DNA of 58,683 nt from Enterococcus phage AS-M1_NWU: sequence record OR506460.1. One strand, given 5' to 3'. Positions 3,322 through 29,585 of this stretch are shown in pieces; positions within the stretch are counted from its first letter, which is position 1; every line of letters starts with the position of its first letter. Below the pieces are notes generated by a model. That model saw only the letters and a program-made list of their open reading frames with translations, did not search any database and was not told the origin of the DNA. The translations under genes and the position numbers were made by a program.

Positions 3322-3374
3322 TTTAAAATCCTCAATACTGGTTTAAGTTTCCGGTTCGTTCCGGCTATGTGAGT

Positions 3375-3403
3375 AATATAATATTACCGCTCTCAGGTGT
3401 CAA
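3375..3403 (-). promoter_or_regulatory. sigma70-like early promoter copy 1 (TTGACA-N17-TATATT on minus strand)
   Basis: revcomp reads ttgacacctgagagcggtaatattatatt; part of a ~110-bp cassette repeated 4x. Confidence 0.6.
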
Positions 3404-3430
3404 CAAGTTTTTATAATTATTTTAGGCAAT

Positions 3431-3464
3431 AAAAAAGGACGGCCACCCGAAAAGATGACCGCCC
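3431..3464 (-). terminator. putative intrinsic terminator (minus strand) upstream of promoter copy 1
   Basis: minus-strand RNA GGGCGG-loop-CCGUCC (G-U wobble) followed by UUUUUU. Confidence 0.3.
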
Positions 3465-3704: not shown

Positions 3705-4338
3705 TTTCTACCCCTTTAATTTTAACTAGCTCTTGTTTGTACTCGGAGCCGAGCACATAATTTTTATTTTCTTCCTTTGGATAAGGCAATACCGGATATC
3801 GAAGCAACTTTTTATATTTCTTCACGACCGAACGGCTCCCCGTAAAATAAACATATCGATGCTTAGACGTTCTAACTTGTCGATAAGTCTTACTTTCCTT
3901 CCCTTGATAATGCCGAGAGTGTTTACCTTGTTCCGTGTATTTATCGGTGCGCGCTTTCGTTGCCCCCGTGTAGATGAAATTGGACGCTTGATAAATATAC
4001 CCGTTGTGGTTCATACCGCGATCCGCATACGACACAATTACCAAGTTTTCACTTTTCAACTCAGCCATAGCGAACGCGATCAATCGGGACGGCGCGTTAC
4101 GGATCGGACGAGTAAAACAAAGACGGTTTAGCTCAAAAACTTTGCTTTTGTACTCCTCGCCCAATATTCCAACGCATAGCGGATTACTCGCCGGCTTGCC
4201 GATAGTTAGAACACCGACAAGCTCCTCGTCTTCGAAGAAACCGAAAGCGTAAGAGATGCTAGGGCGCCTTTCCGCATAATGGTAGTTTAAGATTATGTCT
4301 AAACAATCTTTAGGATCGATACGCCTCATAGAATACAT
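3688..4338 (-). CDS. putative Mom-like DNA-modification protein (GNAT-fold acyltransferase family); tentative
   Basis: 216 aa; motifs NYHYAERRP, ELNRLC, VSYAD, GYIYQASNF resemble my memory of phage Mu Mom family; needs HMM confirmation. Confidence 0.35.
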   Translation of the reverse strand: MYSMRRIDPKDCLDIILNYHYAERRPSISYAFGFFEDEELVGVLTIGKPASNPLCVGILGEEYKSKVFELNRLCFTRPIRNAPSRLIAFAMAELKSENLVIVSYADRGMNHNGYIYQASNFIYTGATKARTDKYTEQGKHSRHYQGKESKTYRQVRTSKHRYVYFTGSRSVVKKYKKLLRYPVLPYPKEENKNYVLGSEYKQELVKIKGVENEAGK

Positions 4339-4341
4339 ATT

Positions 4342-5082
4342 TTAACCCTCCCACGTCCAAGATTCTGAGGCGTCACGAACAATAATTTCGGCCGGACGGT
4401 TTGCGCGTATTGCAACGTCTTTACCATCAACGAAGTAGACCGCGAAAAAATACCCGAACACGTCGCCATCTTTTACGTGGATTTCTCGTCCGTCGTCTTC
4501 GCAGTAGAACACTGTAAGCCCGTCTACTGATGCTTCGTTGTTCACTTCGAAACCAAGGCTTGACAGGCCGTCTAACAGCGGGCGCATTGTGTCGAAACTT
4601 TCAGGAAGTGACGCCAAGATCAAGGCGTCTAAATCACTAACCGCGTTACGTTTAAGAGTCACACACCCGCCGATCGTGAAAGTTATGTCCCAATCTTCGG
4701 TTGCTTCGCCACGGCTAAAAAATATGGCTTTTAATTCTTCCCCGTCGTTTGTTTTTGTAAACGTTGTCGCTCCGTGAGATTTATCAAGGTCTAAAGAGAA
4801 CCCTAGCGCTTTCATTACGGCGATAGTTCGTGCGGATAAGTCCGCATCATTGGCCATATGACAGCTCGCACCATGATCGAACGCGCTCACCTCGACGCTC
4901 TCAAAAAGATATCTAACTAACGGAAGAAATTTATCTAGGTCAGCAATTAATGCTATCGCCCCCGATAATGTTTTAACATCGCCCACCTTGGCGCGAGGGC
5001 TAACTGTCAAAATATAATTACGAACACTTTCGGGCATATCAAAAGGGCTGTTATTGGTTACAACGTTAGAAATGAAAGTCAT
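4342..5082 (-). CDS. hypothetical early protein (after promoter cassette copy 2)
   Basis: 246-aa ORF, RBS ggagga 7 nt before ATG, conserved leader. Confidence 0.55.
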   Translation of the reverse strand: MTFISNVVTNNSPFDMPESVRNYILTVSPRAKVGDVKTLSGAIALIADLDKFLPLVRYLFESVEVSAFDHGASCHMANDADLSARTIAVMKALGFSLDLDKSHGATTFTKTNDGEELKAIFFSRGEATEDWDITFTIGGCVTLKRNAVSDLDALILASLPESFDTMRPLLDGLSSLGFEVNNEASVDGLTVFYCEDDGREIHVKDGDVFGYFFAVYFVDGKDVAIRANRPAEIIVRDASESWTWEG

Positions 5083-5136
5083 GATTTAAATCCTCCATAC
5101 TGGTTTAAGTTTCCGGCTCGTTCCGGGTATGTGGGT

Positions 5137-5165
5137 AATATAATACTACCGCGCTCAGGTGTCAA
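5137..5165 (-). promoter_or_regulatory. sigma70-like early promoter copy 2
   Basis: revcomp ttgacacctgagcgcggtagtattatatt. Confidence 0.6.
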
Positions 5166-5191
5166 CAAGTTTTTATAAATATTCTAGGCAA

Positions 5192-5230
5192 TAAAAAACC
5201 TCTTACCGTGGCACCGAATAAGAGGTTTTA
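5192..5230. terminator. bidirectional intrinsic terminator hairpin
   Basis: 9-bp perfect stem aacctctta / taagaggtt, 13-nt loop, A-run 5' and T-run 3'. Confidence 0.45.
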
Positions 5231-6557: not shown

Positions 6558-6611
6558 GGTAATAATCCTCAATACTGGTTTAATTTTCCGGTTCGTTCCG
6601 GCTATGTGTGT

Positions 6612-6640
6612 AATATAATACTACCGCTCTCAGGTGTCAA
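6612..6640 (-). promoter_or_regulatory. sigma70-like early promoter copy 3
   Basis: revcomp ttgacacctgagagcggtagtattatatt. Confidence 0.6.
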
Positions 6641-6662
6641 CATGTTTTTATAATTATTTTCC

Positions 6663-11110: not shown

Positions 11111-11929
11111 ATGATTAAACTTATGCACTATGCGGATTACGACTACCGCGACCCAAGTAAACATGAACACCGAATTTTCCCGGTTCCGGCCGGAATTAGA
11201 GTCGGGGTGATCATTAAACGCGTTAAGTCCATTGCGAACCCAACTAAGATTGAGGTGTGGCAATACGACGAAAAAGGTAACGCGATTACGGATCTTACCG
11301 GCTTCGCACCGCACATCGAGGGCGTATGTTTAAAAGCGTACCAATGGCTTACAGAACATACATTATCTCTCTCCGGGATCTCGGATACTGAGTCCGATGC
11401 GTATGACTCCGGGATCGTAATCGATGGGTATTTCCAAGATATCCGACCCAACTACGGAACGGCCGACGAGACATTAGACCAGTTGGAAGAATGGTTATTA
11501 GATGAATTCGAGACGACGGACGAAACTAAAACCATATTTCAATATCTGGCCGTTACGACCTACGAGTCAGCGCTTCGAGGCAAAGACGGTAAAGACATTC
11601 ACCTACGCCGTTCTAATCTACGCCATGCGTTGTGCGCATCGAACAATGCTGACCATACCCGCGCTAATATCTCTGTCTCGGAGAATGTGCCACGTTTTAC
11701 CGTGTGGCCAATGTCTATGTCTCCTCGTTCTTGGGATATGAGCAAGCCCGGCCCGAACGCTTGGGACTCCATGGCGGGTGTCGCAGCACCAAGAGGACAA
11801 CAATTCGAAGACCAACTAAATACATGCTTTGAGCGCGGTTTTATCGGTGGGCTAGATATGCGAGCGTTCCACGGCTGGAATACCCGAGTTACCGCATATC
11901 AGTTCATCACTGAGGACGCAACGTTATGA
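11111..11929 (+). CDS. hypothetical protein
   Basis: 272-aa ORF, ATGA coupled to next. Confidence 0.5.
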   Translation: MIKLMHYADYDYRDPSKHEHRIFPVPAGIRVGVIIKRVKSIANPTKIEVWQYDEKGNAITDLTGFAPHIEGVCLKAYQWLTEHTLSLSGISDTESDAYDSGIVIDGYFQDIRPNYGTADETLDQLEEWLLDEFETTDETKTIFQYLAVTTYESALRGKDGKDIHLRRSNLRHALCASNNADHTRANISVSENVPRFTVWPMSMSPRSWDMSKPGPNAWDSMAGVAAPRGQQFEDQLNTCFERGFIGGLDMRAFHGWNTRVTAYQFITEDATL

Positions 11930-12693
11930 ATGATGGGGATTTAGACATTATGGCACTACCACCAATTAAAGACTTTGCCGGATATGACGGCCCACTAGAC
12001 CACCCGATCATCATGCCAGTACCGTCCCTCATGCGGGCGGAAGTCTATGTATCCCACGATTTAAAGGACATAGAAATTAATGGCGTTTTCCGAGACGGAA
12101 CCTATTCGGCGTCAAGATGGACTGGTTCATGCCCCGAATTGGAAGAACAATTTTTATTCCTAGCGGAGTTGTTGAAAGACGACTTCAAGGAAAAATGTAT
12201 CCTCCCATTTAGAGTGGGTCGAGACAAGTCCGAACTACGAGAAGTCGATAGATTTATCCCGGGGATCACCGGCAACATCGGTTTTGAAGTGTATTTACAT
12301 GACACCGGGGATTTCGGCACTAAGTATACTCAGAAATGCTTAGCCAACTGTAAGATGACGGGAGAGAAAGACGACGACGGTCTAGTATCCGCCTCGATCG
12401 TGAGCGCTTACGGGTTCGGGGAACTAACGCCTGTTTCTCGCGAGGTGACAGACGTTGTGAGAATTTACGAAAGACGTTACCAGATCAGCCACCGACTCAA
12501 CCTCATGGACGACGAGGGGTATTTGCTGTCATTAGCTCCCGGAGAACTGAAACGCGTTGACGCGGTACGAACCGCTGAGTTCTATTTCGAGCAAGGATAT
12601 CCCAACGTGATTATTCTCAATTCCGGTCGTCCGTACAACTCCGACGCTACCGGACAAATGTATTACTATTCACCGGAGACATACGACTTATGA
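11926..12693 (+). CDS. hypothetical protein
   Basis: 255-aa ORF. Confidence 0.5.
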   Translation: MNDGDLDIMALPPIKDFAGYDGPLDHPIIMPVPSLMRAEVYVSHDLKDIEINGVFRDGTYSASRWTGSCPELEEQFLFLAELLKDDFKEKCILPFRVGRDKSELREVDRFIPGITGNIGFEVYLHDTGDFGTKYTQKCLANCKMTGEKDDDGLVSASIVSAYGFGELTPVSREVTDVVRIYERRYQISHRLNLMDDEGYLLSLAPGELKRVDAVRTAEFYFEQGYPNVIILNSGRPYNSDATGQMYYYSPETYDL

Positions 12694-25017: not shown

Positions 25018-25760
25018 TAAGCCCCCTGAATCATTAATCTAATAATAAAGCCGAAGTTAACGGCCGAGTCGATTGTATCAACCGGAGCTAAGATTGTCAG
25101 CCTGTCACCTTTGAAAAATCTCACGGCAACGCTACCAGACGTCACGAAAGTGGCGTTATATTGCCCCCGATCGACAGTGAATGTGCCGACAGTTTGGTTA
25201 TTTCTCTGCACAGTGAACTTAGCTTTATCGAGAAAAGCACTACGGGCGTCGAATTGAGATTGTGCCATGTTAGCCGGTAGATACATATTGTCGATAATTG
25301 GCAAGTGTACGAGCACTTCCGATGGATACATCTTCTCCGAAATAGTCGCGGATACATCAAACGCCATAGGTACAACATCGGGAGATGGGTTAGGGTCGAT
25401 CGGGTCAACCCCGGTATTCTCGATGCGCCATGTCTCACCGTCCCACCAGATAAACTCATTGGTCGGGTCTAAGAATGCCCTCCACCCACGTTTAGGCTCG
25501 ATGAATTGCCACACGCCGTCGATCAATACGGCCAGTTTTCTTTCTTGGCCAACCCAAGGGCCGGTCGGGTTTTTATAGATAAAATAGGTGTCGCCGTTTT
25601 TAGCGTCAGCCGGTGGCGCACTAAACGTGATAGATTGTAGGCGTAGAAACGTAACAGTATCTAAGGTGGTTAGCGTCTCGTTCATTGGGCCACCCCAAAA
25701 ATCCTCGCCTCTCACCCAACCATAGGAAAGCCCCATGTTAGGGGCAATTTTCATTGGCAT
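25017..25760 (-). CDS. tail-associated protein (247 aa), coupled downstream of J-like gene
   Basis: ATG overlaps stop of Pro-rich frame (TAATG); W/G-rich N-terminus. Confidence 0.45.
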   Translation of the reverse strand: MPMKIAPNMGLSYGWVRGEDFWGGPMNETLTTLDTVTFLRLQSITFSAPPADAKNGDTYFIYKNPTGPWVGQERKLAVLIDGVWQFIEPKRGWRAFLDPTNEFIWWDGETWRIENTGVDPIDPNPSPDVVPMAFDVSATISEKMYPSEVLVHLPIIDNMYLPANMAQSQFDARSAFLDKAKFTVQRNNQTVGTFTVDRGQYNATFVTSGSVAVRFFKGDRLTILAPVDTIDSAVNFGFIIRLMIQGA

Positions 25761-26152
25761 TATTCAGTATCCTCTTTGACGTCTTGGTCTGGTAGTCGTT
25801 CCGCCCAATCATGATCCCACTTGTTTGACCAACCGGCAACAACCAACGGTGGCGGAGGCTCAACCGGATCAGGGTCAGGGTTGCCCGGATTAGGTTCTGG
25901 ATCAGGGTTGCCCGGGTCGGGGTCGGGGTTCGGTCTATCAGGCTGACCCGGATCTGGATTGCCGGGGTTCGTACCACCTCCAGTCTGATCCGCCTCCACC
26001 AGTTTCGCCACCGCCAGTTCCCGGGTCAGGTCTTCCCGGATTGGGGTCAACATCTCGCTTGGCCGGAATTGAGGGTACTTTACACTGAGTATTATATCCT
26101 TGCCAGCTACTAAGCTCGTTTTCATCGACAGCGGATACCGTGATCGAAACAT
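25760..26152 (-). CDS. Pro/Asp-rich ORF (PNPDPDPGNPDPEP...) overlapping C-terminus of J-like gene in +1 frame; possible frameshifted C-terminal extension of J
   Basis: 130-aa frame open across J stop, terminates TAATG-coupled to next gene. Confidence 0.3.
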   Translation of the reverse strand: MFRSRYPLSMKTSLVAGKDIILSVKYPQFRPSEMLTPIREDLTRELAVAKLVEADQTGGGTNPGNPDPGQPDRPNPDPDPGNPDPEPNPGNPDPDPVEPPPPLVVAGWSNKWDHDWAERLPDQDVKEDTE

Positions 26153-29100
26153 AGACGTATCCGGTGGATTCCGTCAATATCCCTACTCGTCTACCGAACG
26201 CGTGTAAGTCTTCGGCCTTGATCGTCATACCTGCATCGCGAGTATAATACGTCCCCATGGTGATAGTAACTGTGCGATTGCTGTATCTAGGAGTATATCG
26301 TTTCCCGACCCACACTCGATACATTACGTCGCTTGGCCGTTGTTGCCCTACGTCAAGATGGTCTAACACGGTTTCACCTTGTCGAACTCGGTTACGGTGC
26401 GCCCATGTCATCACTAAGTCTTTGCCTTGCGGGTCATAGTAGTCAAAGTTATCGGCCAGTGCGTCCCACCCTTTGAAAAAGTGCTCTCCGTTTCCGAGCA
26501 AGAACCCCGGCGGATATGGCCTATCAGCGCGTAATTTTACTTCCAGTTGTTTATTCACCACGTCTTTAGGCTGGATTTCTGCTGCGAGAGAATGCGGTCT
26601 TACTGCAACCACGCAAGTCTGGCCGTCGTGATATTTACGTTGCCCGGAAGCTATTTGTTTGTCGACAAACCACACAACTTGACCTTTCCCATGAAGTGCG
26701 GGGATTGTATCAACACAACCACGGCCAACCGTAATACGTTTACCATCGATGCCCCGGATCACCATCGCTTCGACTCCGACGAAAATCACGTCGCCCGGCA
26801 TCGCGTCCTCAGTAGGAACCCCGTCAGAATCCGACGTAGCGTCGAGGATTATCTCATTATCAAGATATGAGATTGCCTTAGATAGAATTCCCCACGGCGT
26901 CCACGGTTGCGCCCCTTGGTTCACGTACTCTGTATCGTTCTTCTCTTTCTCGAATAAATCGTACCCGTCGGTTACACGGTCTGACGGTCTAGCTACCGTA
27001 GCGAAGAATTGTGAGGCGGACGGTTCGAACCCATGGCGTAGCAACATTAAGTAAGGGAACTCAAACAGTTGGCTATCTACGATAGGAACTAATTTGCCTT
27101 GTTGCGAAACCGGTTGTCGCACATAGCTAACATTCACGCCATCAGGTAGGCCCCCGCCACCGGAAGATAGATCTTCGCTCTCCTGTGCTACGGATTGGTT
27201 GACAAAACTAACCATGGCTTTTGCGTCTACGGCCGTCTCTCCGTCTTTATCTTCCGGGTCGATTTTATCGGACACCTGAGCGACAGATTGGTTTAAGAAA
27301 CTAACATACGCCATTTGAGGCGGTTTCTTGAAAACGGTGATCGGAATTAAGTAGTTTTGCCACGATTCGAACCCGTCGCGCATCGATTCCAATCGCAAGT
27401 ATCCAGCAACCGGATCTATGGCTGACGCTTCCACGTTCAAATCTAGGCTCGCTTGGCCGTAAGTGTAGACAAACTGTGTGCCGGTAATCCCGTTTTCTCT
27501 GCGGATTACTTCACCCTTAGCGTTTAGGATACTAATTCGGTATGTCGTTCCCGGCTCCGGCCCGATACTATCTTGCTCATGATAAATCGGCTTGTCTTGT
27601 TGCATCGGTCTATCTCGGTGCGCCCACGTTATCGTCAAGGCGTCAGGAACTTCGGCCTCTCCGACGTCCGCTCGTAAAACATGGCCATTAAACCAAGGTT
27701 TCGGTTCCGTGCTTTCCACTGAGGTGAGTTCTACTTTACCCGGAGCGTATGGGCGGTAGAATCGGTAATTGAAAGTCAGTTCATCTTCGGACACGTTAGA
27801 CTCGTCGAGAACCCCACCCGATAGCGTCCATGGGAGTATCTTCACCGATAAGGTTTCTCCCGCTTGTCGGGTTGTCAGGTCAAGCCCGCCACCTTGAACC
27901 ATATCCCACACTACGGAGCCAGCGGGGTGTTGGTGAGGTACGGTGTCGTACACTCCTCGACGTATTTCGACCAACCCGTCTTCCTCGATAGACTGGATCA
28001 TGATTATTTCTTGGTTGACGTAAAAAACGTCCCCGACTTCAATCAAGTCTTCATCTACCGGATCTTTCATTCGGATATAGCGGTCTAAATATCCAAGGTC
28101 AACCGGTAATTCGAATAGCGCAGTGAAATCCCCCGCACCTGTTTTCTCATACTTTCCAGTGGTCGGGTTTTGGACGTGCATCTCGAACGCCATCGTTACC
28201 GGTGAACCTTTTTCCGCCTGTGCCCGTAAATACCCGAAAGACGGCTTGATGGCCTCAAACTCTCCTAGTGGGAATAGGGACGACAATTCTGCGTATGTCG
28301 CTTCATAAACTAAACGTCTGGCCGGAACCGGGTTTAGGTTCGGTTTAGGGAAAGACGGGTCTTGAACACCCGTAAACGTGTTCAGGTCGAACGAGAACGT
28401 GTCTTGTACGCAAGATAATCGTATCTGACCATCGGATTGTTTGCTCTCCTCTGTGTCCGCTACACGCACGATTACGCTCTCAAGTCCGCGCGTCTTCGGG
28501 TCGGAAATCTTCAAAACGTCTCCCGGTTGTACTCGCCATGCTCGACGGTCACAAACTAGGGTGAACCGGCGGACGTTAGTAGACGCAACACGTAAGTCTC
28601 TCTCTGCGAGGATTGTTGCCAGTTTTGCGGTTGGCACCCCCTCATACGTGAATGTGTCACTTTTGATGGCGCCGGAAGTCTGGATTAATGCTAGGTTCTG
28701 CGCTCGCACTTGGCTTTCTTTACCGACGATCGGGTTGAACCATTTAACGACACATTCATTCATCAGGCCATGGATTGCGCCGTTAGTCGCCTCCTCGATT
28801 TGTAGTAGACCGCTCTCAAAACCGTACACCGGCAAGTTATCCGCATCGTAGTCATTACGAAGTAACTTGAGTTTGAAAGTACCGGTAAACTTATCGACGT
28901 ATAACACGCCTGAAATGTGGTTAAGTATATTCTGGATAAAAGACTCTAGGGTGTCTTGGCGTCTCCACGCAATACAGATCCCGAACCCCTCCTCGAACAA
29001 CGTATCGGCCACCTTTCGGAACTCCGAGTCAAACAGTAGGTCACGAGAGATACCTCGGCCCCAATCTCGGTTTGTCATACACTCGTAAATAACGTGAGCC

Positions 29101-29585
29101 GGGTTCATCGCCTTGATGGGATACTCTTTCCCCTCGTCATCGTGGCCGGTAAGTTCTATGACCGCTTTTTCCGGATACCACACCCCACCGTCCCAACCTT
29201 TTAAGATGCGACGTATTTTAAATCGCCACGCTTTCGGGTATGGGTTCATGGCCGACACTAAACCATCGAAATAGCCGGTAGCTACTCCGCGAAACTCCGG
29301 TTGGCTCCCACCGCCCAACATGGATTTCAATTTGTCGCTAACAACCTGATCTTTGTCACCCATGTAGAGTTCGAAACCGCCCTCAATGCCTCCCTCCGCT
29401 TTCTTACCGCCGAAAAGATTTTCAGCCCGTATCCGAAAGAACGAGGACTCTTTAACGGAACCACGCCAAGCGGTTCTTCCGCCGACCTCGATTTCCATCA
29501 ATTCATCAATAGGGCCACGGCCGATCCCCATGTGTAGCCCCATATAGTAGGAGTAGCCGGCCGTCGCCTTTTTAAATTTACCCAC
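25938..29585 (-). CDS. host-specificity / central tail fibre protein (lambda gpJ-like)
   Basis: 1215 aa; N-terminus MGK...GPIDEL resembles lambda J N-terminus MGK...GPIEGP; position after minor tail genes. Confidence 0.65.
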   Translation of the reverse strand: MGKFKKATAGYSYYMGLHMGIGRGPIDELMEIEVGGRTAWRGSVKESSFFRIRAENLFGGKKAEGGIEGGFELYMGDKDQVVSDKLKSMLGGGSQPEFRGVATGYFDGLVSAMNPYPKAWRFKIRRILKGWDGGVWYPEKAVIELTGHDDEGKEYPIKAMNPAHVIYECMTNRDWGRGISRDLLFDSEFRKVADTLFEEGFGICIAWRRQDTLESFIQNILNHISGVLYVDKFTGTFKLKLLRNDYDADNLPVYGFESGLLQIEEATNGAIHGLMNECVVKWFNPIVGKESQVRAQNLALIQTSGAIKSDTFTYEGVPTAKLATILAERDLRVASTNVRRFTLVCDRRAWRVQPGDVLKISDPKTRGLESVIVRVADTEESKQSDGQIRLSCVQDTFSFDLNTFTGVQDPSFPKPNLNPVPARRLVYEATYAELSSLFPLGEFEAIKPSFGYLRAQAEKGSPVTMAFEMHVQNPTTGKYEKTGAGDFTALFELPVDLGYLDRYIRMKDPVDEDLIEVGDVFYVNQEIIMIQSIEEDGLVEIRRGVYDTVPHQHPAGSVVWDMVQGGGLDLTTRQAGETLSVKILPWTLSGGVLDESNVSEDELTFNYRFYRPYAPGKVELTSVESTEPKPWFNGHVLRADVGEAEVPDALTITWAHRDRPMQQDKPIYHEQDSIGPEPGTTYRISILNAKGEVIRRENGITGTQFVYTYGQASLDLNVEASAIDPVAGYLRLESMRDGFESWQNYLIPITVFKKPPQMAYVSFLNQSVAQVSDKIDPEDKDGETAVDAKAMVSFVNQSVAQESEDLSSGGGGLPDGVNVSYVRQPVSQQGKLVPIVDSQLFEFPYLMLLRHGFEPSASQFFATVARPSDRVTDGYDLFEKEKNDTEYVNQGAQPWTPWGILSKAISYLDNEIILDATSDSDGVPTEDAMPGDVIFVGVEAMVIRGIDGKRITVGRGCVDTIPALHGKGQVVWFVDKQIASGQRKYHDGQTCVVAVRPHSLAAEIQPKDVVNKQLEVKLRADRPYPPGFLLGNGEHFFKGWDALADNFDYYDPQGKDLVMTWAHRNRVRQGETVLDHLDVGQQRPSDVMYRVWVGKRYTPRYSNRTVTITMGTYYTRDAGMTIKAEDLHAFGRRVGILTESTGYVYVSITVSAVDENELSSWQGYNTQCKVPSIPAKRDVDPNPGRPDPGTGGGETGGGGSDWRWYEPRQSRSGSA

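Follow-up and report, generated by a model that had tools for sequence, protein, structure and literature searches.

A single extra base very probably strands the normal C-terminus of the J-like protein at the tail tip of Enterococcus phage AS-M1_NWU in the +1 frame

Why should a Pro/Asp-rich reading frame stay open for 130 codons across the 3′ end of a phage tail gene and close exactly on the start codon of the gene that follows? The question is raised by a minus-strand locus of Enterococcus phage AS-M1_NWU (record OR506460.1), of which a stretch of 58,683 nucleotides, here called the window, was analysed. The J-like ORF (25938..29585, minus strand) opens with GTG, encodes 1215 aa ending ...GGGETGGGGSDWRWYEPRQSRSGSA and stops at a TGA (25940-25938). 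The +1-frame ORF (25760..26152, minus strand) comprises 130 Pro/Asp-rich codons ending ...QTGGGTNPGNPDPGQPDRPNPDPDPGNPDPEPNPGNPDPDPVEPPPPLVVAGWSNKWDHDWAERLPDQDVKEDTE, and its TAA (25762-25760) shares one base with the ATG (25760-25758) of a 247-aa gene. A first-pass annotation had described the J stop at 25938, the open +1 frame with its P-rich product and the TAATG on the next start, and all of these were borne out when read on the minus strand. It had offered as explanations a programmed frameshift, a homopolymer indel that hides the true J C-terminus in the P-rich frame, and a genuine overprinted gene. We are highly confident that the last 73 codons of the +1 ORF are the ordinary C-terminal tail of J, a protein probably of the baseplate hub 2/central-fibre type, cut off by one extra T at position 25982. 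Only these 73 of the 130 codons are meaningful. The frame break is a lesion or a sequencing or assembly error, and the +1 ORF is neither a separate gene nor a product of recoding.

The elements of the locus, in the direction of reading, are the following.

29585 to 25983, minus strand: body of the J-like protein (Phage-tail_3, PHROG 6284), frame 0, from the GTG start to GAC (Asp1201)
26152 to 25983, minus strand: first 57 codons of the 130-codon +1 ORF (MFRSRYPLSMK...VEADQ), which are J read out of frame
26019 to 25991, minus strand: imperfect 15-nt tandem repeat detected by TRF (1.9 units, GGCGGTGGCGAAACT-like, with GGGET/GGGGT units), just upstream of the break
25982, minus strand: the extra base, T on the coding strand and A on the plus strand, within GAC-T-GGA, causing a +1 shift
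25981 to 25938, minus strand: out-of-frame end of the truncated J, WRWYEPRQSRSGSA and then the stop, the first base of its Trp codon lying at 25982
25981 to 25763, minus strand: what we take to be the authentic J C-terminus of 73 residues, marked by a PHROG 6284 match and third-position variation
25762 to 25758, minus strand: TAATG stop/start overlap of the repaired J with the DUF2793 gene, seen in the sequence
25760 to 25017, minus strand: 247-aa DUF2793 'tail fiber protein' gene (PF10983, 2.4e-23; PHROG 7049, 7e-124)

Read in the +1 frame, bases 25938..25981 give GGGTNPGNPDPGQP. The 73-residue C-terminus as a whole comprises the end of a Gly-rich segment, a Pro/Asp/Asn-rich linker of ~45 aa and a conserved terminal peptide, LVVAGWSNKWDHDWAERLPDQDVKEDTE, and its sequence in the P-rich frame includes ...VEPPPPLVVAGWSNK / WDHDWAER. 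The P-rich stretch has a local GC content of 63-65%, compared with ~50% nearby, and holds degenerate short repeats (a 27-nt-spaced GGATCAGGGTTGCCCGG family, and (GGGTCG)x2.7 at 25914-25929). The ATG of the DUF2793 gene is preceded, at a distance of 9 nt, by a Shine-Dalgarno-like GAGGA. The 1215-aa product is exactly WOL30608.1, which in the protein collection is found on AS-M1_NWU alone.

The DNA of AS-M1_NWU shares 95-98.5% identity with 27 GenBank records of Lavrentievavirus (Casjensviridae), mostly phages of Proteus mirabilis. The relatives carry J as a single tail-protein CDS of 3780-3825 nt, which encodes ~1273 aa from the common start and ends at the start of the fibre gene. The records with such a continuous CDS are PM87, ASh-2020a, Jing313, DanisaurMW, Inception, NotEvenPhaged, DoubleBarrel, P2-71, Isf-Pm1, PLY284, RP6, pPM_01, Escherichia E21, P-07, Salmonella SD-11/13/14 and Pseudomonas E21. 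In an anchored comparison J was uninterrupted in 22 of 23 GenBank relatives, the exception being the noisy, UNVERIFIED record pPM01-Egypt, and three Logan read-assemblies likewise hold J genes of 1273 or 1274 aa. The tail protein of Lavrentievavirus (PM87 YP_009997993.1, ASh-2020a YP_010187246.1), at 98% nucleotide identity, agrees with that of AS-M1_NWU in its start, its gene order and its TAATG overlap with the DUF2793 gene. Once one base is removed it agrees also in length (1273/1274 aa), with a C-terminal 130 aa that is identical in some members. As deposited, however, the AS-M1_NWU ORF is split into a 1215-aa piece and a stranded tail of 73 codons, and it bears a GGGGSD unit that differs from those of the other members in having synonymous codons of its own. 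Whereas the PHROG 6284/Chi gp30 family is one of single ORFs, the AS-M1_NWU J is broken by the +1 shift at 25982.

The same TAATG overlap is annotated in PM87, ASh-2020a, E21, RP6, pPM_01 and Chi. The earlier suggestion that ribosomes do finish in the P-rich frame is right for the family, in which a continuous J ends at the TAATG. Given that the spacing between the J stop and the fibre-gene start ranges from -17 to +46 nt among relatives, the tight coupling is a habit of the lineage rather than a constant of the family.

The difference between AS-M1_NWU and these relatives comes down to one nucleotide. T25982 is the sole gap in the 4,569 nt of J and the fibre gene when these are compared with RP6, pPM_01 and a Logan contig (L030). 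An anchored segment around it measures 257 nt in AS-M1_NWU and 254 nt in pPM01-Egypt; in 22 relatives its length is either 253 or 256 nt. Deletion of the T gives an ORF of 1274 aa with no internal stop, and the last 130 aa of the repaired J are identical, at 130 of 130 positions, to those encoded by a Proteus mirabilis-labelled contig (P0008) and by phage P2-71 (P0011). This identity means that the stranded frame has not decayed, and hence that the lesion is either missing from the real DNA or very recent.

The inserted base lies just 3′ of the 15-nt Gly-codon repeat, at which the relatives fall into two in-frame allele classes that differ by 3 nt. One is of the GGGET/GGGGT type (...GGC GGT GGC GRA ACW GGC GGT GGT ACG...) and the other of the GGGGSD type (...GGC GGA GGT GGG TCA GAC GGA GGT GGA ACA...). 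AS-M1_NWU reads GGT GGA GGC GGA TCA GAC T GGA GGT GGT ACG, that is, a GGGGSD-type allele plus one T, and its own synonymous pattern of Gly codons around T25982 marks it as a distinct allele and not a copy of a known one. Exact-pattern scans for both versions of the site, one bearing the extra base and one lacking it, returned none in IMG/VR, GTDB genomes or JGI metagenomes, which provide no independent copy of the AS-M1_NWU allele. The 1215-aa truncated product is likewise absent from the Logan assemblies, and a literature search found no paper on AS-M1_NWU. The first-pass annotation had pointed to a slippage-prone ccgggt repeat and to a homopolymer indel. Degenerate short repeats are indeed present, but the T sits outside the ccgggt repeat and outside any homopolymer. 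What stands of that proposal is the indel and the assignment of the true C-terminus to the P-rich frame, on which the continuity of J in the relatives, the switch of the conserved frame and the PHROG 6284 match all agree.

The switch of frame is seen in the codon positions at which the relatives vary. In an alignment of 25 sequences, 34 of the 48 variable sites upstream of the T (26460..25983) fall at the third position of the J frame, which is the second position of the +1 ORF. Downstream of it (25981..25763) third positions of the +1 frame account for 26 of 32. Even within the final 14 codons of the truncated ORF (25941..25981), all seven variable sites occupy the third position of a +1-frame codon and the first of a J-frame codon. 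T25982 is therefore the exact point at which third-position variation leaves the J frame for the +1 frame. An alignment of homologues had been proposed as a way of telling which frame is conserved, and its answer is the J frame until T25982 and the P-rich frame after it. Since the first 57 codons of the +1 ORF vary at their second position, the +1 frame is not under selection there, and these codons gave no match in Pfam or PHROG. Against the 'tail protein' profile PHROG 6284 (1280 positions), the 1215-aa ORF spans positions 2-1206 and the 73-aa P-rich piece positions 1203-1277 (E=4e-20); read against this profile, the two are abutting parts of one family protein.

A search with the J-like ORF, which matches Pfam PF13550, retrieved 640 relatives, and structures matched the repaired J as well (PDB 8vjh_A over residues 3-1266, E=0; 8rk3_o at 3e-120). 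To judge from these sequences, the J of the family is a continuous ORF of ~1273 aa, made up of a globular body that closes with ...NWQGY..PS(I/Y/F)P, then a Gly-rich segment, a linker rich in Pro, Asp, Asn and Glu, and a conserved Trp-rich peptide, with a stop that overlaps or abuts the DUF2793 start. We counted the terminal motif in 74 retrieved homologues of at least 1200 aa, which are 32-99% identical. The motif W[GS]xx[WYF][DN]HxW occurs in the last 60 residues of 70 of them (1236-1326 aa long), where it follows first a Gly-rich and then a Pro/Asp/Glu/Asn/Thr-rich linker. The four exceptions are AS-M1_NWU itself, one JGI protein whose Arg-rich tail is evidently frameshifted, and two sequences in which the motif is a distant variant. 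In AS-M1_NWU the peptide, as GWSxxWDHxWAxxLP, is present together with its Gly-rich and Pro/Asp-rich linker in the +1 frame. The repaired C-terminal 256 aa used alone as a query gave zero matches, probably because low-complexity words flood the candidates. Weak PDB matches that might have made the linker a relative of filamentous-phage g3p are compositional (GGGS/E-type linkers) and do not reflect homology, and this candidate was rejected.

The arrangement is kept well beyond the genus. The J of Providencia phage Kokobel1 ends ...PPIEVAGWSIKWDHDWASRLPEQDLKEGE and that of phage Chi, gp30, ends ...NVPGWSLSWDHGWAMTLPDFRYVPPADEEPE, in each case within one ORF that adjoins a DUF2793 gene. The gene order of a BR0599-like gene, two small ORFs, J and DUF2793, which AS-M1_NWU has as well, is retained down to 32% J identity. 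Chi is a flagellotropic phage. Its gp30 (with YSD1_29; PDB 8VJH chain A, 'minor tail protein', 1296 aa) is homologous to the repaired J over residues 3-1266. Like J it has a Gly-rich segment and a Pro/Asp/Glu-rich linker that lead to a VPGWSLSWDHGWAMTLP peptide, and its stop codon and the start of gp31, the DUF2793 gene, overlap, as in the J and DUF2793 pair described here. It differs in being only ~43% identical, in its longer linker and in belonging to another genus. The lambda gpJ-type tip proteins (Phage-tail_3; PDB 8rk3, 'Tip attachment protein J domain-containing protein') are homologous over the N-terminal ~750 residues and share the position in the tail cluster, after a BR0599/gpL-like gene and two small ORFs. 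In contrast, only the Casjensviridae-like subfamily has the C-terminal half with its Pro-rich linker and GWSxxWDHxW peptide, and there are J homologues of ~737 aa that have none of the three. The tip proteins of Chi have been described as the baseplate hub proteins BH1P and BH2P (PMC11945409, PMC12724387), and YSD1_29, the homologue in YSD1, has been reported as tail-fibre-forming (PMC12264135). On our own reading, gp30 probably corresponds to BH2P.

These comparisons suggest what the C-terminus may do. The J-like protein would form a trimeric cone at the tail tip, and its C-terminus would carry a flexible Gly/Pro-rich tether of ~70-110 residues tipped by the conserved Trp-rich peptide. The linker and terminal peptide may dock the next component of the tail tip, the DUF2793 fibre protein, or may fold back onto the J trimer. 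That the DUF2793 gene is always next and the peptide is conserved, with the linker free in length and sequence, suggests a tethered docking element.

As to whether the extra base lies in the record or in the phage, we put an assembly or consensus error and a very recent lesion in this isolate at roughly even chances. An error is favoured by the occurrence of the break in one record only, by the perfect preservation of the downstream frame and by the family-wide conservation of the peptide that the break removes. That the break is unique to AS-M1_NWU and that a one-base repair yields a protein identical to those of relatives is the pattern of an artefact. A real lesion is favoured by an assembly that is otherwise clean (two indels in 43.9 kb against ASh-2020a) and by the position of T25982, which, not being in a homopolymer, does not carry the typical signature of a platform indel. 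For an error it might also be said that the micro-sequence joins the two allele classes column by column, as a mixed-read consensus could, with TCAGAC taken from GGGGSD and ACT from GGGET. Such a chimera fits, but the fit draws on about four informative synonymous sites and is not demonstrable, and we did not adopt it as the origin of the T.

If the extra base is real, as the otherwise clean assembly allows, ribosomes on J might slip +1 before the TGA at 25940-25938 and so produce a full-length J with linker and peptide, and the candidate point for this is a tRNA-Pro on CCC_C at 25967-25964 with the rare codon CGG in the A site. The CCC_CGG follows the break at a distance of 15 nt on its 3′ side and is itself preceded, 8 nt upstream, by a Shine-Dalgarno-like GGAGGT. 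CGG and AGG, both present in the out-of-frame tail of the truncated J, are the rarest Arg codons among the ORFs of the phage, and a slip at this point would alter just six residues of a flexible linker. In having two ORFs in a +1 relation, and a CCC_C with a rare Arg codon before the 0-frame stop, the locus resembles known programmed +1 sites (prfB CUU_UGA_C; CCC_N slippage of tRNA-Pro). The likeness does not extend further. The two-frame arrangement is not conserved, the 22 continuous GenBank relatives and three Logan assemblies leaving only the noisy pPM01-Egypt as another split record, and the CCCC run is inherited from the relatives' in-frame AAC CCC GGC (Asn-Pro-Gly), with nine other in-frame CCC_C in the long ORFs of this phage. 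A Shine-Dalgarno motif stimulates +1 shifting in prfB at a spacing of 3 nt, not the 8 nt from the CCC found here. Shuffled sequences fold as well as the local RNA does (z=+0.71), which leaves no stimulatory structure. At GAC-U-GGA, where the homology itself switches frame, there is no slippery codon and no tRNA re-pairing is possible. Hence, although low-level spontaneous slippage is possible, nothing suggests programming, and we regard the programmed +1 (or -2) frameshift of the first-pass annotation, or any +1 shifting of functional consequence, as most improbable.

Equally improbable, in our judgement, is that the Gly-codon repeat is a mutational hot spot, with a loss of the C-terminal peptide in part of the population that would resemble phase variation and alter fibre attachment or host range. 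Different 1-nt insertions, separated by 8 nt, bring the J of AS-M1_NWU and that of pPM01-Egypt to the same premature stop, and the inserted base is the sole difference between pPM01-Egypt and its twin in an 8.5-kb tail block. The GC-rich surroundings, the imperfect repeats and the two in-frame length alleles would also suit such a site. However, the homopolymers and simple repeats that drive phase variation are absent from both insertion points, and IMG/VR, GTDB genomes, JGI metagenomes and Logan assemblies contained no frameshifted copy. The pPM01-Egypt record is moreover error-laden, with 109 gap positions in 46.7 kb against its near-twin Pseudomonas phage E21, and in a sequence so full of indels a chance insertion near this site is not very unlikely. 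There is a similarly slim chance that the extra base is real and that 25975..26020 is a recurrent frameshift site which switches the docking peptide off, with leaky slippage at CCC_CGG partly restoring it. If so, mixed virions and altered fibre attachment or host range would be expected, which would accord with the oddly scattered host labels among these phages.

It is scarcely credible that the 130-codon ORF, or a part of it from a shorter internal start, yields a separate small protein, rich in Pro, with its termination coupled to DUF2793 initiation. In favour of such a gene are the 130 open codons with their TAATG on the next start and the 77-aa CDS annotated in the P-rich frame by the depositors of pPM01-Egypt. 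Against it, the first 57 codons vary at the second position, the third position of J, and the 73-aa part aligns with the C-terminus of the J-family profile and corresponds to the in-frame end of J in relatives. There is also no Shine-Dalgarno motif before the ATG at 26152, and the exact 130-aa protein is absent from a collection of 15 billion proteins.

With the extra T very probably the sole cause of the split, WOL30608.1 (1215 aa) should be a tail protein of ~1274 aa or be flagged as disrupted, and the 130-codon ORF should not be annotated as a gene. A one-base lesion in a low-complexity linker can mimic a long alternative frame with neat stop-start coupling. The biology beneath it is real but already in the databases, namely a deeply conserved Trp-rich C-terminal peptide carried on a Gly/Pro-rich linker by the tail-tip protein of Chi-like siphophages, and this peptide may merit a structural look.

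The J-like tail-tip protein gene (J) ends in a Trp-rich peptide, which in the window is read in the +1 frame and which is also found in homologues:

25763-25846, minus strand, C-terminal peptide (V/P/F/Y)GW(S/G)xxWDHxWAxxLP

Homologues with identities between 99% and about 36% keep this peptide, which in them is preceded by a Gly/Pro-rich linker that varies freely and the DUF2793 tail fibre gene always lies next downstream. No described function was found for the peptide. At the protein level the linker (window 25860-26050, minus strand) gave weak matches, with E about 2e-3, to filamentous-phage g3p (1g3p and 2g3p); homology to the GGGSE-type linkers of g3p was rejected, the likeness being compositional.

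J is split in the same way in a second record, pPM01-Egypt (PV786929.1, L002, deposited as UNVERIFIED Proteus phage pPM01), by a 1-nt insertion at L002 position 3988; this site is 8 nt away from the extra base of the window, the single T that separates J from its C-terminal tail. The depositors annotated J of pPM01-Egypt as two CDSs, of 1207 and 77 aa. Compared with Pseudomonas phage E21 (PV596763.1), the insertion at 3988 is the sole difference in 8.5 kb, and across the whole genome the same pair shows 109 gap positions, which are clustered in messy stretches. Tail genes are disrupted in three further members of the family:

MN840486.1 (P16-2532), J broken into pieces of 745, 169 and 149 aa
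OR699185.1 (SD-12_S18), DUF2793 gene broken into pieces of 116 and 77 aa, with about 71 nt absent
P0074 (JGI protein, a homologue of J), C-terminus out of frame and Arg-rich

Comparison with the Lavrentievavirus relative ASh-2020a also revealed indels. At window position 4451 a run of A6 corresponds to A7 in ASh-2020a, 24 nt upstream of the stop of the gp18 homologue; in the window the run falls in the following ORF:

4342..5082, minus strand, gp18 homologue, 246 aa in the window versus 218 aa in ASh-2020a

This difference in homopolymer length alters the C-terminus of the gp18 homologue in one of the two records. At 2717, within the homologue of gp21 (ASh-2020a 11493-12293), the window has a 20-nt deletion that changes the frame close to the 3' end of the gene. 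Cross-hits in the same comparison marked a repeat of ∼100-114 nt in the early-gene region:

3323-3436, copy 1
5085-5198, copy 2
6564-6660, copy 3

The three copies share the core CTGGTTTAA(T/G)TT.TCCGG(T/C)TCGTTC, and their ASh-2020a counterparts are positioned at, or adjoining, intergenic gaps of the annotation. Each may be one copy of a repeated promoter, terminator or regulatory element.

Although deposited as Enterococcus phage AS-M1_NWU, the window is 95-98.5% identical to Lavrentievavirus phages of Proteus mirabilis. Other records in this cluster of near-identical phages name Staphylococcus, Pseudomonas, Salmonella or Escherichia as the host. The occurrence of one such cluster under these different host labels suggests that hosts have been wrongly labelled, or that a single phage lineage has been carried over between isolations.
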